From: Eledone cirrhosa
Lineage: Eukaryota
NCBI GenBank assembly: GCA_964016885.1
Contig: OZ024740.1
Span: 188,232,001-188,296,000, forward strand
DNA length: 64,000 bases
Direction of reading: 5' to 3'
The notes beneath the pieces were generated by a model. That model was given only the letters and a program-made list of their open reading frames with translations. It had not been told where the DNA came from and searched no databases. Shown here in pieces: positions 14,017 through 62,653 of this stretch (position 1 is its first letter; each line of letters begins with the position of its first letter). A program made the translations under genes and the position numbers.

Positions 14017-14220
14017 AACGAAGAAAGTGTGGTAAGGAACCAGATCGACCATAATGCAGCAGAGTACTTGATACTTAGGGTAGTAGAGTGGGTAATAGGA
14101 AGAGAGTCAGGACCTCGATGGCTGAGCTCCGGCCGTTTCGACAACTAGATCAAAATAGTTATGATCTAGCTCTCAAAATGGCCAGAGCTCAGCTGTTAGG
14201 GTCCTGACTCTTTTCCTATA
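14017..14220 (-). mobile_element. TA-inserted fold-back element
   Basis: Inverted arms ~14095-14152/14162-14219, unique tail 14017-14094, (TA)n on both sides; internally deleted relative at 38167-38253. Confidence 0.75.
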
Positions 14221-15159
14221 TATATATATAAACATGCATACATATGTATATCAATGCATGGTATACACAGATCTGTGCTGAGGTGCTACTGTACTCTATC
14301 TCTGAAGGTTGTTTTTCCAAGGCGAATTAATTATGATTGCTTCATTTTTTAATCATTGTGAACTCCTTAGATTTAGTGGGGGAACCACTATACAAGAACA
14401 AATTTAAACATTAAATTAATAATTAGTGGTTTTGAAATTTATGTGTGTTTTATATTCAGATATTTTTCTTAATAACTCGAAGGGAAATATGAACGAGAAA
14501 CAAATCTGTTAAACAGTATTCACTTTTTCCTTCTTTAATTTCATTCATTTGGAGAGATTATAAAAGTTCATCTAAATCGGTACATTGAAAATGTAATATA
14601 AACTTATGTAGATCACTAAGATGTAATACAAACATAGTTTTGTAGAATTTAGAAAATACATATGAACACTAAAGAAAAAAAAAATAAACACCAAATTCAA
14701 AAACATGGCCTGTGGTCAGTCAATAAGTCTATTAGTTTATTTTATTTTATATTAGAAAATAACATTTGGAGAATCAGATAATGTTACTTTCTCTTGTGGA
14801 GTGCTTCATTATTTTCAATTTGGCAAATTCTAATTTGCACAATAGCAATTAGTATTAAAATTTTAATAAAAGTCCATGACATTCTTTGTATTTTAGAAAT
14901 TTAATAATGTTTTTACTTTTATGTTTCTCTCATGATTTTTATGATTCTATCATTAATTTGTTACCAGCATTCAAGTATATATTTTCTTCTTGATTTCTCT
15001 CTGTACTAGATACATCTTGGATCTGTAATGGATAGACTAGCAAATTAAGTTTACTTTTTTTCTTTTTGCCCTCTCTTAATAAAGGAATTAAAATAAATAA
15101 TAGTTATATAATTAGAATCTTTAGATTTATGCATATATATATGTATTTATTTATTATAT

Positions 15160-15520
15160 ATCATCATCATCTCCCTTTAACATTTATGTTCCATGCTTGC
15201 ATGCATTAGACGGTTGTTGTATGGTGAGACTAGACTGGTCAGGAGACTATGTTCTGCTCATACACTTTGTTTTGGCTTGATGCCCTTCCTAACACCAACA
15301 ACTTTGGAGCATTGTTTCTATGGCTGCATGCCCTTCTTAAAGCCAACCATTTTACAGTGTATGCTGTGAGCATGGTTTCTATGGCTGTATGCCCTTCATA
15401 ACACCAACCATTTGAAAGCATTACTGTGAACATGTTTATTATGGCTGGGTGCCCTTTCTAGCATCAACTACTGTAGAAAGTGTACTAGGAGCATTTTGTC
15501 ATGACTCTGACACTACTACC
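15160..15520 (-). repeat. RTE 3'UTR-derived fragment with ~55-bp tandem unit x4
   Basis: (cat)n tail plus repeated 'tatggctg.atgcccttc.taac.ccaacca', the reverse complement of a motif in the RTE 3'UTRs at ~30775 and ~32715. Confidence 0.65.
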
Positions 15521-16779
15521 TTACATGGGGGATTGGGTGCTGTTTTAGGGATATGAGAGTTCAGCAGGAAATTTGAATCAGTCAAGGATCCCCCTTCCTA
15601 ACATGGAACATATTGGCTTGTGTTCCATCAAACTATTTAGAATATTTTAATCATAACAACTTGACCTAAGGTTTAAATAACCACTATTGTTCTTTAAAAA
15701 TTTAATTAAAAATGTTGATATTTATTTGTTTACATGCCTCTTTCCTTTTACTGTAATAACAACATAGTTTTTCTCTTTCTTTCGCTCTTACTACTTGGCA
15801 AAACGGATAAATAGCTCATGATACTGACTTTCAAGATCTTTCTAACCTGTTGTCCTTTACTTCATACAATCATTGAAATCTTGTTAGCATTTGTGATAAT
15901 GTGCATGGCATAAGTTATGTGAAGCTTAAATCTTGATTTTTCAAATATTTCCACTGATCAACATTGCAGACAATTAGTAGGGTTTCAATTATATGAGTTT
16001 TCTTAATGCCAGCTTATTAATCTGACTGATTAAAAAAGTGCTTAATTTTATCCTTATTCAGTTTACCACAGAATATCTGAATAAGCATTAATATGTTAGG
16101 GGTTTTAATGTCAATATTTCTCTGTGGGTTCTTATAGAATAGAAATAATCTCATATTTATCTCAGTCAACAATCTAGCTTTCATGCCTAGTTGTAAGTAT
16201 TTCACTTCAGTAGCATTGGTAATGCCCTTATAAAAGACAAATATTACAACTTAGATTTTTGTTGTCTCTCTGCTGTCATTAGGGATAATCACATATTAAT
16301 GGATAATGTTGGTTATGAACAGTCAAGCAGAAAATACAGACATTTGATGTTTTCACTGCTTATTTCACCAGGGTATGAAATAAATTAATAGTTTATCAGT
16401 TTTTGCTTCTGCACCATTCATTGCTAAGTTTCAGACTGCTGTAACATTGCTAAGTAGTGATATGTTCATAAAATATTTAGACTAATTACATTTTACATTC
16501 ATTTTCATTATGAGAGATTGTATTAACATAATAAAATGTGCCAGAGTTATCTCTTGATAGAGCACCAGAACAAATTATTTCTCTGTATGCTGTTAGTTAA
16601 TATTAATAGTTTAGACATAGAAATATTTTCATTTGAGCTAGACATTTTGCTGATGACTTTTTGTATGTTATACTCTCCTAACAAAGAAAGTATTCATGTA
16701 GAAACATTCATATTTAACTAGACAAAGTTCTAGCTAGTTCTGCTTTTATATATATTTATTTACCACAACTAAAAAAGGT

Positions 16780-17016
16780 TTAACCCTTTTGATACCAAAC
16801 CACATGACGCTGACTCTGATTGTACAATATCATAACTGATTCTGTTATGCTTATCTTAAACACACTTTCTTCATAATTTTATGTAAGAAATTCTGTTATA
16901 TTTCAGACACTATCTTAAAGAGAAAGTTATTTTAATAAATGTTTTGATTATTTTCAAAATTATTTGAAAAATAATAAGCATCTCTTACATTCGATATATG
17001 GTAATGAAAAGTTTAA
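16780..17016. mobile_element. Possible piggyBac-type MITE
   Basis: TTAA-CCCTTTTGATACCA ... TGGTAATGAAAAGT-TTAA; imperfect TIRs with TTAA ends. Confidence 0.35.
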
Positions 17017-59959: not shown

Positions 59960-60285
59960 TAGTGAATTTGCAGTGTTGTGAGAACATCAGATAGAATGCT
60001 TTCTGGTATTATTCAATTTGGCTCTCTGCATTTAGAGTTCAGGCCCCACCAAGGTCAATTTTATTTTTCATCATTTCGATGTTGATAAATAAAGTACCAA
60101 TCTAGTACTTGTGTCCAATTTTCCTCTTGATCCCTTTCTCACTTCCTCTCTGTCATTGTCTCCCTCCATCCATAGAAGAAATTGTATGTGTTCAGATCTG
60201 GAGAGGATTGACTCTACCAGGTTTAAAATGCTCAAGATATGTCATATGTCATCCCTATGACACCATCAGGATATTACAAGCCCAT
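59960..60285 (+). mobile_element. SINE family A variant (diverged) with extended body
   Basis: gagttcaggccccaccaaggtc..gataaataaagtacca plus a segment shared with 33000-33117. Confidence 0.55.
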
Positions 60286-60862
60286 GCATACATACAACAT
60301 GGTCATTGACACAATTCCACTGCAACTACAGGAACTGAATCTTGTTTTATCCCCTACACTCATTCCTAGCTGACTCACAGTCACAGACATTTTAAAGATC
60401 CTTTTTTCCTTCTCATCACCAAACCCAACCTCTAACAGTTCAAATGTTTTTGTAGTTAACATCTTCCTATGTGTGAGCTGGAAGTTAGGTATGGAGTTCC
60501 CTACATAATGACGTATGTCTACGCGTGGGCATACGTGCATATTTATATACATATATATATATATGTGTGTGTATATGTGTGTGTATATGTGTGTGTGTGT
60601 GGGGGGGGGGGATTAGTGTATGTGGTAGTGGAACATGAGTAGTTCAAATCTGTTTCTGCCCATATCAGGTCATCAAACCATTGTATTATCATTACTGCTC
60701 AAAATATATCTATTATTTACACATACAACACCATTGCATAGAACCTGGCCTGAATAATTACAATAGAGTGAACTGCACTAAAGGCATTTATTGTTCAGGT
60801 AGTGGTGTTAAACCTGGTAGTGTAAGTTGTATGTGAGTGTGTGTGTATATATATATATATTA

Positions 60863-61057
60863 ATTAAAATAACAGATTAAAGTTTAAGCAAAGAATCGCT
60901 GCTTTCACTCTTAAGGGTGAATGCAGCGATTCTTTGCTTAAAATTTAATCTGTTATTTTAATAAATATTTGCTCTAGAGTTCTTATATATTTGATATATA
61001 TATTTATCCTTATTGAGCCCTCTTTGGATTTTAGTCTTCACATTTATTATTTTTACT
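60863..61057 (+). mobile_element. TA-inserted hairpin element
   Basis: Palindrome 60863-60962 centred on TTAA 60911-60914, tail 60963-61057, TA on both sides. Confidence 0.75.
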
Positions 61058-62383
61058 ATATATATATATATATATATATATATATATATATATATATATA
61101 TATATGTACACACACACAAATGTATATATACATGTACACACATGTATATATTCATATACACACACATATACAGGGTAGAGAATGTCCATCACTGATGAAT
61201 TTTATGTGCACCCATCATATGCATACTTTAATCAGAATCATGATATGGATCCAATATAAGGAGCTGAGATGATTGGAATTATGTTCTCTTTCTCTCTCTT
61301 CATGTATATATTTACATATAGAAGTGATTAACAAGAAGGCAATAATTTGAGGCATCTCCTCCTTGCTGAATTTTATGGTGAAAATTCTTGCTTGTATGTT
61401 ACTCCCTTGAGTAGGATAACTTTTAAGAAGCATACATTCTGAGAGTCATTATGGATGCCAGTACACTTAATCTGCTTTAGATATAAGATCTTTACCTTGC
61501 ATTAACTGCAGCAGGTTGAAGCTGTTATTTGTAATATTTGTTTAGCTCACAAGATTCTGTTATGTACGCTTAAACCACAAATTTTCAGAGCTTGGATGTG
61601 TTGATAGATATTGAAGTGTCTTTCAATTCTCATTGTCCTGTTTTGTAGGTGTTGGTAAAATGGTTTTGCATTTGGTTGTAAGATCAAGAAGGATTATGAT
61701 TTTTGTCCCTTGAATTTTCAATTTTGTCTCATACATTGCAGGTCTGTTGTATTAGACTTCTTCACAATCTTCTGGATTACTACATCACACTCTCAATGAT
61801 TAATTATTTTATGTTCTTTCAAATCTAATGCTGTTGAATTCCTCCAATTTAAATTCTTATTATAACAGTGATGATGTAAGAATATATATGTTACCTTCCT
61901 CTAACAACCTATCAGTTAGATAGAACAATAGCGATATATTACATTAACATAGTCAGATAATGGTACAAAACCATAGTATGGGTTTAATAGTATAGTTACT
62001 ATATATATATACACATACACACATGCATATATACACATTCACACACTTAAGTATGAACCATTGATCCTTTGTTTAATAGTTCTTTTTTCTGTGAGTTAGC
62101 CCATAAAGGAACTGCACTACTGTGAATTGTTGCAGATAATGGTAGACGTATTAACTTAGTGAGACTGAAATGTTCAGAGGAGACATGATGGGGGAGATAC
62201 AAATTAGGCAGATACTGTTGCACTAGAATAAAAGAAAGAAGGATTGTACTGTAGATTACCAAACTCATGAGTTTTTTTTCTTCATGTCTCATTCCAACTA
62301 GACTTATAGGTTTTGAGAAAAGTTGAGGAGTACCTTCTCCTGTCTTCCTCTCATGTATCCTTAAAAATGATATATATATATAT

Positions 62384-62653
62384 AAAATGAAATGTTGTAG
62401 TTTGCTTGAAGCATTGTATATGATATATAATGTGGAGAGAGATATAAGGCTAAACAATGCAAAATGGACTGTAAGATGAAGGTAACAAAAATTTAAGCTA
62501 CCTGGTAATCTTTATTTTGGTTTTTGTTGTTTTTTTCTTTCAACAGTAACAACAAAAGACAAAACCAAGATTACCAGGTAATTTACTTTTTAGGTACCTC
62601 ATCTTACAGTCCATTTTGCATTGTTTAGCCTTATATCTCTTTCCACATTATAT
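62384..62653 (-). mobile_element. TA-inserted hairpin element
   Basis: Arms ~62424-62532/62547-62653, tail 62384-62423, TA on both sides. Confidence 0.75.

Follow-up and report, generated by a model that had tools for sequence, protein, structure and literature searches.

Head-to-head palindromes with a one-sided tail in Eledone cirrhosa are probably twin-primed insertions of Penelope-like element ends

The one-tailed palindromes in a 64,000-nucleotide stretch of Eledone cirrhosa DNA (the window) are probably each a single 5'-truncated insertion of the end of a Penelope-like element (PLE) into a (TA)n tract, the two halves of which are likely to have been made by twin priming. An initial annotation had listed nine palindromes with an extension on one side; all nine were found, and the coordinates given for the unpaired extensions matched exactly or to within about 6 nt (Table 1). 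Once masked, the window contains 13 local inverted repeats, compared with none in each of 10 local shuffles. Positions 21235, 31253, 53837 and 57729, quoted as hairpin apices, proved to be outer ends, with the true apices near 21417, 31395, 53930 and 57950, and the pairs that had been assigned to one family (21235/31253 and 53837/57729) belong to sister families that are 69% and 76% alike. Local inverted repeats are dense in the genome (102 in 864 kb) and are not all of the one-tailed kind.

Each family has two preferred 3' ends, seen as bimodal 3'-end histograms: a proximal end (P) and a distal end (D) about 40–110 nt apart, with the tail between them. The suspicion that the tails might be unrelated flanking DNA fails, as all nine are conserved family sequence. 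The same tail with the same terminal base occurs in copies elsewhere for the families at 21231, 57729, 14017, 39324, 60963 and 62384. For F20 (20195) and F31 (31525), 40 of the 40 best matches to each extend to the tail end, although these matches are tail-selected because the query included the tail, as are the copies of family A (21231). For F53 (54023), a family without a genome search of its own, four more one-tailed pairs are present among the fetched loci. In random stretches plus the window, a microsatellite tract comes after 58 of the 60 P ends and after 47 of the 54 D ends, and both kinds of end are joined to (TA)n; the random sample covered 1.16 Mb in addition to the window. The outer ends are fixed, as had been proposed for an alignment of many copies per family; the apices are variable, as also proposed, yet they cluster at family-specific 5' boundaries rather than being free. 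These boundaries follow TATA/Inr-like motifs, and the apices often lie at short palindromes or RNA hairpins. The (TA)n flanks mask any target-site duplication; such tracts attract repeat insertions, and neighbouring elements are present at several loci.

Table 1. Features of the nine palindromes (window positions; P and D, proximal and distal 3' ends)
Feature	Position	Strand	Remark
F14 tail (P to D)	14017–14094	-	Also in other copies, then (TA)n
F14 palindrome	14095–14219	tailed arm -, tail-less arm +	3' half of hammerhead-like motif in arms
F20 tail, about 110 nt	20195–20306	-	20199–20294 repeated at 20683–20778
F20 tailed arm	20307–20782	-	One 484-nt unit and start of next (partial tandem); direct repeat 484 nt apart
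F20 tail-less inverted arm, end = P	20782–20913	+	
Family A palindrome	21231–21603	both	Probable 3' region of degenerate Hydra-like PLE
Family A minimal type-I hammerhead motif	core 21495–21501, GAAA 21533–21536	+ coordinates	In each arm
Family A tail, 94 nt	21604–21697	+	Identical end in 29 of 30 best copies
F31 palindrome	31247–31530	both	Sister of A; hammerhead motif intact on - arm, GAAA box changed on + arm
F31 tail, 96 nt	31531–31626	+	
F39 palindrome	38934–39323	both	pLTR of full-length Neptune-type PLE; apex = putative transcription start
F39 hammerhead motif	from 39166 and from 39091	+ and -, respectively	
F39 tail	39324–39358	+	About 11 nt shorter than in other copies
F53 palindrome	53836–54023	both	Sister of family T
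F53 tail	54024–54070	+	
Family T tail, 40 nt	57729–57768	-	
Family T palindrome	57769–58092	both	Belongs to 271-nt unit also found in tandem
Family T tRNA-like head	57877–57950	-	Start of tailed arm
F60 palindrome	60857–60967	both	Apex inside hammerhead-like stem
F60 tail, about 90 nt	60968–61057	+	
F62 palindrome	62429–62653	both	Hammerhead motif further 5' in longer family copies
F62 tail, about 42 nt	62384–62428	-	

The palindromes typically combine one arm of each kind. Among 126 same-family head-to-head pairs that were not selected for a tail, 118 were scored as one-tailed, a number that rose to 120 when two alignment run-ons into (TA)n were re-read; the exceptions are five P/P pairs and one partly double-tailed pair. 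All 30 pairs from unselected stretches, five of them in the window, are one-tailed. A stricter census of 142 pairs, which included tail-selected loci and in which M denotes an end inside the tail, gave 136 D/P, one M/P, two D/M, three P/P and no D/D. No (TA)4 separates the arms of the counted pairs, and 142 of these 145 consist of a single family, the three mixed-family pairs being D/D, D/D and P/P (Fisher p = 1.1e-4). A D/D tail-only joint (L022) was observed, as was a further double-tailed F14 candidate with a 43-nt gap (L247), and in F20 two of eight second arms reached D. Natural long copies served as the family references. Pairs with more than 40 nt between the mapped arms were left out of the reach count (18 such candidates are uncounted), and several F14 pairs were missed in it because the F14 reference is of another subfamily than the window copy; these were recovered in the analysis of unpaired arms as D/P.

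Wherever an ORF, a hammerhead-like motif or a tRNA-like head gives direction, the 3' ends point outward, and in an ORF-bearing palindrome (L110) both ORFs run outward with a 65-nt tail on one arm. It had been suggested that the tail lies 3' on the sense arm and so predicts the sense of the RNA. The tail is indeed at a 3' end; however, since either strand of a palindrome contains the element, this rule amounts to both 3' ends being outward, and the two arms are equally sense. The tail marks which arm began at D and indicates no unique RNA sense.

Either arm can be the longer. In 116 pairs the tail-less arm is longer in 34 and the tailed arm in 22, with 60 equal or ambiguous (symmetry not rejected, p = 0.14); the tail-less arm is therefore the one reaching further 5' in 34 of 56 unequal pairs. 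The excess can be up to about 500 nt (554 versus 36 nt, and 588 versus 198 nt in a tail-selected locus). The 184 unpaired arms include 17 P arms whose head-to-head partner is a tail-only piece, the joint duplicating essentially nothing; these are L1-like inverted joints in which both pieces end at target DNA (with two clear examples). Junction overlaps of 1–9 nt occur in 57 of 148 pairs, and short snap-back fillers are found at some 5' joints. In F60 an identical junction is seen both as 62/53 and as 53/62, the tail being on one arm or the other, and the same junctions recur at different loci. Of 95 pairs, 9 have both arms extending past the modal 5' boundary, compared with about 1.8 expected from a calculation by hand.

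Shared non-CpG variants are in excess within insertions relative to between them in four of the five families tested (per kilobase, T, 1.81 versus 0.13; F39, 11.1 versus 2.3; A, 12.6 versus 1.3; F14, 58.6 versus 25.6), whereas F60 shows no within-insertion sharing (0 within, 0.04 per kilobase between). Private variants are common to both arms within, but not between, insertions. At two sites the arms mostly disagree, and arms of one insertion are as unlike each other as arms of separate insertions in T and F60. A single source locus, subfamilies that were active in different periods or later conversion between arms could also account for shared variants.

The structures are probably 5'-truncated short ends of endonuclease-bearing (EN+) PLEs, demonstrably so for the families linked to ORFs. 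F39 makes up the pLTR of a full-length element that has RT, with GIY-YIG at the C terminus (L308 and L309). The L308 ORF (6508–8415) contains a DKG motif and matches Pfam RVT_1 (E = 7.9e-7; 29.4 bits, slightly below the cut-off of 29.6) and GIY-YIG (E = 2.2e-6); the pLTR is present there as a direct repeat (4553–4809 and 8817–9073), and L309 has an inverted 127-nt 5' pLTR copy. The C-terminal EN of F39 has a CX2-5CxxC linker and a CCHH motif, as in the Neptune/Nematis clade. Family A has endonuclease-like tblastn matches upstream in L311. The L110 family has an ORF in both arms, without a significant Pfam match, and a CxCX5C linker was recognized by eye in one arm; CxCX5C, no CCHH and a (TA)n target characterize the Hydra clade, and the Hydra-like endonuclease pieces are not recognized by Pfam. 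The longest copies fetched of F14, F20, F31, F53, T, F60 and F62 contain no contiguous ORF, and layout, target and motifs are what place these families with the PLEs; at L041, a PLE-like ORF piece is attached to a T copy.

A motif scan found minimal type-I hammerhead motifs in A, F31, F39, F62 and the L110 family; F14 and F60 have altered cores, and the scan gave no hammerhead in T. Rfam returned no hammerhead match and one tRNA match above the gathering score, with microRNA-hairpin and snoRNA look-alikes below it. Family T may be a tRNA-derived SINE, in which a tRNA-related head would form a fixed 5' end of a Pol III transcript. The T head has a tRNA-like fold and is followed by a T5 run; some T 5' ends lie at the start of the head, but many lie 3' of the T-stem or upstream in the tandem unit. 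Tandem non-coding units measure 271 nt in T, 484 nt in F20 and about 540 nt in F27. A splice-made hammerhead in F60, for which a splice-acceptor-like sequence precedes the altered core, was rejected as no matching donor was established. A sequencing-run search with the F39 pLTR gave no RNA dataset among the matches listed.

Two priming events had been one of two routes offered in the initial annotation, and it is the one supported. The enzyme of the element, predicted to be a dimer, would cleave the (TA)n target on both strands. Reverse transcription would be primed at D by one of the cut ends and, 40–110 nt further in, at P by the other, each primer annealing to a small number of A/T bases in the RNA. 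Synthesis of the two copies would proceed toward the RNA 5' end and halt on reaching it or at a stable hairpin, and the cDNA ends would be linked head to head, frequently via microhomology of 1–9 nt. The D-primed arm would carry the tail, which the P-primed arm could not. Both primers may act on the same RNA molecule, P first and D behind; within the twin-priming model a single RNA is somewhat favoured, as one arm of each kind is best explained in this way. Indirect signs pointing in that direction are the variants common to the arms of an insertion, the coupled long reach of both arms and the mixed-family pairs, which depart from D/P. The enzymology, the order of priming and the single RNA are deduced from genomic end products. 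In the available text of PMC11167929, a purified PLE protein that is predicted to dimerize cleaves and extends both target strands and starts reverse transcription at two adjacent internal sites bounding the tail. The same text gives no start-site difference between the two strands in vitro, which is a point against the model. With a single RNA, strand displacement would have to extend across hundreds of bases, and the frequent stops of family T at the tRNA T-stem suggest a weak displacer, which argues against this step.

Twin priming could instead use two RNAs from the same source, with one subunit of an asymmetric dimer at D and the other at P. This is the less likely version, with a probability that forms a minor share of that given to twin priming itself. 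No long strand displacement would be needed, the exclusivity, the symmetric reach and the tail-only joints fit, arms from one active locus would have variants in common, and that a single joint can bring two RNAs together is shown by the mixed-family pairs. However, D/P would be predicted in such pairs and was seen in none of the three, a small number that could represent separate insertions, and the coupled long reach would require RNAs of the same length class.

Two published proposals, self-priming on antisense RNA at a terminal palindrome (PMC3846280) and a tail set by endonuclease resolution of an intermediate (PMC8557442), are unlikely in the form given in the available texts. They accord with the apices at short palindromes or RNA hairpins and with 5' boundaries at TATA/Inr-like motifs, as described for pLTRs, but leave unexplained the arms that differ by hundreds of bases and the non-duplicating joints of tail-only pieces to P arms; moreover, both ends match start sites of reverse transcription seen in vitro on sense RNA in another PLE. 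Fold-back, the other route in the initial annotation, in which a single cDNA begun at D would fold at the apex, serve as its own template and be joined to the target at P, is very improbable. The pairs of equal or ambiguous reach, the junction overlaps and the variants common to both arms would suit it, and the snap-back pieces at some 5' joints indicate that it happens locally. The tail-less arms that are longer (34 of 116) count against it, since a copied arm cannot exceed its template, and as a general route it is refuted by the 17 joints whose D piece offers essentially nothing from which the P arm could be copied; the F60 junction with the tail on either arm also speaks against it. Spread of the palindrome as a unit, with a master copy transcribed and the whole hairpin reverse-transcribed from D, would account for the F60 junctions shared between loci and for common arm variants, but is highly improbable given the recurrent junction with the tail on either arm, the wide variation in reach between copies and the private variants within insertions. 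That the tails are flanking DNA, or the arms two unrelated insertions in one (TA)n tract, is barely credible despite the attraction of such tracts for repeats and the neighbouring elements at several loci, and is refuted for same-family pairs by the conserved tails, the lack of (TA)4 between arms, the single family in nearly all pairs and the non-random D/P combination, although the three mixed pairs could fit it.

It is conceivable, although short of probable, that single-RNA twin priming is a built-in pathway of EN+ PLEs in which the dimer gives one fixed start site per target strand, the inverted pLTR, the one-sided tail and L1-like inversions being outcomes of one reaction common to at least two PLE clades and to hammerhead-less, tRNA-headed passengers. 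Copying of the halves from two fixed sites suggests a bearing on how PLEs insert. The origin of their tandem and inverted structures is named as an open problem in the available text of PMC8557442, and published ideas diverge: one invokes antisense self-priming, another resolution by the endonuclease, and a third internal initiation, which leaves the inverted copy unaccounted for. The dense stumps in this genome turn a drawn model into counts that separate rival models, and these counts predict that the top and bottom strands of one target start at different sites in vitro. The layout is already published; no published account of a coupling between the two sites was found.

Twin priming in L1, the mechanism of which was reportedly set out by Ostertag and Kazazian in 2001, is a minority route with an internal and variable second site. 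As in the present insertions, both target ends prime on the RNA, giving an inversion with a deletion or duplication at the joint (PMC12350158 and 10.1101/2024.12.14.628481, available text); here, in contrast, the second site is fixed, this outcome is the norm among paired copies, and long duplications prevail. Animal non-LTR retrozymes similarly have short non-coding tandem units related to PLE pLTRs (10.64898/2026.07.22.740005, available text), whereas family T has a tRNA-like head and, by motif scan, no hammerhead. The Poseidon PLE of Anolis has in vitro two adjacent start sites of reverse transcription that bound the tail 3' of the hammerhead, with both strands of an AT-rich target cut and extended; the difference is that the two sites are paired here, one per target strand, within an insertion, and that the inverted copy is left unexplained in the text available (PMC11167929). 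The Penelope-type inverted pLTR with a one-sided tail, named in the initial annotation, is the known layout of EN+ PLEs, which share the head-to-head inverted pLTR, the tail at one end, partial tandems, a TATA/Inr-like pLTR start and the (TA)n target (PMC3846280, PMC8557442), as well as minimal type-I hammerhead motifs (PMC4209133). Compared with those descriptions, as far as the available texts extend, the tails are longer here (40–110 nt versus 30–40 nt), the one-tail rule is near-strict (120/126), not 'optional' or 'often', the majority of copies are pLTR-only stumps, and joints without duplication occur.

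The window is AT-rich DNA of an animal (GC 32.8%; the source assembly comprises 3.0 Gb) and, with simple repeats masked, contains 13 local inverted repeats, compared with none in any of ten shuffled controls. All nine mirror-image structures named in the initial annotation were confirmed, with the order (TA)n, arm, apex, arm, unpaired extension, (TA)n. The positions quoted there as apices are outer ends of palindromes, and the two pairs described as belonging to the same family are sister families with 69% and 76% identity.

Genome searches were run for eight of the nine structures, the tail being included in the queries for families A, F20 and F31 and omitted from the others; each main query produced 898 to 3361 first-look candidates, and among the best 40, which were scored, the 3' ends of copies fall at either a proximal (P) or a distal (D) site ∼40–110 nt apart. 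In content-blind stretches (116 of 10 kb; 1,224,000 bases including the window), a microsatellite tract follows the P end in 58 of 60 cases and the D end in 47 of 54. The tails, which lie between P and D, are element sequence conserved among genomic copies and not flanking DNA, with outer ends fixed at P or D. The ninth family (54023) is known from four further pairs only.

The palindrome at 38934 (family F39) is the terminal repeat (pLTR) of a full-length element with linker motifs matching the Neptune/Nematis definition of Penelope-like retroelements (PLEs). One genomic locus (L308) has the order direct pLTR, ORF with reverse transcriptase and C-terminal GIY-YIG, second pLTR; another (L309) has the same element, but with the 5' copy inverted and 127 nt long. 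An endonuclease-like sequence upstream of family A is related to locus L110, whose linker, judged by eye, matches the Hydra definition; L110 is itself palindromic (2.4 kb), its two ORFs facing outward and one of its arms being extended by a 65-nt tail. In five families a motif scan identified minimal type-I hammerhead motifs upstream of P, and in two others it found altered ones; none of these was detected by Rfam. Since a linked ORF was not found for seven window families, their assignment as PLEs rests on layout, target and motifs.

Additional features of the window
Position (strand)	Feature	Details
7311-7507, 11425-11606, 12539-12733, 35194-35384 and others	Non-palindromic dispersed repeat	∼190 nt; probably a SINE
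27426-27669 and 26968-27421	Tenth palindrome	Young; arms 97.5% identical; tandem unit ∼540 nt; left arm continues beyond the stopping end of the right arm
28163-30597, 31608-32479, 36964-38205	LINE fragments	Presumably RTE-like; Pfam RVT_1 at 28163-29809
30817-31013	Inverted arms	Arms 57 nt; centre of 83 nt containing (ATG)n and (TA)n; layout unlike the other structures
38172-38227	F14 tail piece	Unpaired, embedded in RTE-like fragment
57522-57654 (+)	Unpaired stump	L110 (Hydra-like) family; tail present
57729-57955 (-)	Family T unit	tRNA-like head
60900-60930	F60	Splice-acceptor-like sequence preceding altered hammerhead core in longer copies

Pairs were mapped in seven families using natural long copies as references, and the main count covers 126 same-family head-to-head pairs outside 30 tail-selected loci; pairs whose mapped arms are separated by over 40 nt, of which 18 are listed, lie outside it. 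Denoting each arm by the end it reaches (M for an end inside the tail), the first scoring gave 109 D/P, seven M/P, five P/P, four D/M and one D/D. Widening the P limit by one base gave 118 one-tailed, five untailed and three double-tailed pairs; alignment run-on into (TA)n explains two of the latter, leaving 120 one-tailed, five untailed and one double-tailed. The proposed asymmetry, with a tail on one arm only, also holds for all 30 pairs from content-blind stretches, including five in the window. Under stricter rules, in which both ends had to lie at a microsatellite, a census of ten families that included the tail-selected loci yielded 136 D/P, one M/P, two D/M, three P/P and no D/D. Exceptions include F20, where the second arm reaches D in two of eight cases, and locus L022, a D/D joint; L247 may be another.

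ORFs, hammerhead motifs and the tRNA head place 3' ends outward and 5' ends at the apex, no polarity marker being found in F20. The suggestion that the tail predicts RNA sense is thus correct as to the outward 3' ends, but both arms are sense copies, one on each strand, so that the tail cannot single out one RNA sense and only marks the arm ending at D. Apices vary between copies, as claimed, but cluster by family. Arms start 180–209 nt upstream of P in F39 (36 of 51), where a full-length copy also starts (L308 4553; the corresponding window position is 39129), 50–69 nt upstream in F14 (57 of 80), 110–129 nt in T (22 of 44) and 170–179 nt in A (11 of 29). A TATA-like motif, at a spacing described for pLTRs (PMC3846280), lies ∼25–30 nt upstream of the cluster in F39 and A, so that the cluster is likely to be the RNA 5' end, or pLTR transcription start; the T cluster, by contrast, coincides with the foot of the T-stem in the tRNA-like head. 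Junction lengths in 148 pairs, which are approximate as they were read from BLAST ends, comprise overlaps of 1–9 nt (57) and at least 10 nt (13), flush joints (21) and extra bases numbering 1–9 (30) or at least 10 (27).

Of the two routes originally suggested, two primings are better supported. The best-supported mechanism, in our judgement fairly probable, is twin priming from a pair of fixed sites. Among 184 unpaired arms, 17 are P arms joined head to head to a tail-only piece (two clear examples; one, with 16 nt and a 36-nt gap, weak). These are inversions without duplication, and since the partner offers essentially no DNA template, the P arm must have been primed separately. P would be primed first and D behind it on one RNA, after which the D copy might stop in the tail or displace the first cDNA; two primers would be barred from the same site because both sit on one RNA. 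This reading draws on variants and reach common to the two arms and on the three mixed-family joints, two of which are D/D and one P/P. A real rival is an asymmetric dimer carrying two RNAs that come from a single source. In families T, F39, A and F14, though not in F60, the two arms of one insertion have more non-CpG variants in common than arms taken from separate insertions, and both arms extend beyond the modal 5' boundary in nine of 95 pairs (∼1.8 expected); the common variants may also reflect subfamily succession or arm conversion. Fold-back is unlikely as a general route, because it copies the tailed strand and the tail-less arm could not exceed its template, whereas among 116 pairs that arm is the longer one in 34 and the shorter one in 22, the remaining 60 being equal or ambiguous. 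Two sites adjoining T runs, P-60 in F39 and P-7 in T, differ between arms of one insertion in six of 13 and five of 14 pairs, respectively, and are possibly reverse-transcription error hot spots.

Family T, with its tRNA-like head inside a 271-nt unit (also at L054, L033 and L056), behaves like a PLE end, occurring as stumps, partial tandems and circular permutations; no hammerhead motif was found in it. Many of its copies begin immediately 3' of the T-stem and some at the tRNA start. A tRNA-headed PLE passenger was not found in the literature searched. At L041 (2-1684), the 5' end of a T copy is joined to a PLE-like ORF piece, which in turn faces a related ORF head to head (the two are 83% identical as proteins); this joint is possibly a template switch naming the mobilizing partner of T.

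The feature is real and its layout known. Both the inverted 5' pLTR and the optional tail appear in PMC3846280, where antisense self-priming is proposed; the same layout is reported with a 30–40 bp tail ascribed to endonuclease resolution, (TA)n targets are noted and tandem and inverted structures are listed as unexplained (PMC8557442). In an Anolis PLE studied in vitro, the tail is bounded by two internal reverse-transcription start sites and both strands are extended, with a dimer predicted and no difference in start site between strands (PMC11167929). Minimal hammerheads occur in pLTRs, with an intron of Drosophila virilis Penelope ending at the ribozyme (PMC4209133), and retrozymes are PLE derivatives (10.64898/2026.07.22.740005). 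Neither twin priming of PLEs nor pairing of two start sites within one insertion was found in the literature searched (main texts, few subscription journals and none of the older Penelope papers). Although the layout is ordinary, the pair counts make the open question of the PLE insertion mechanism directly testable. The tail-only joints resemble inversions ascribed to L1 twin priming, for which joints with deletions and with duplications are both reported (PMC12350158).
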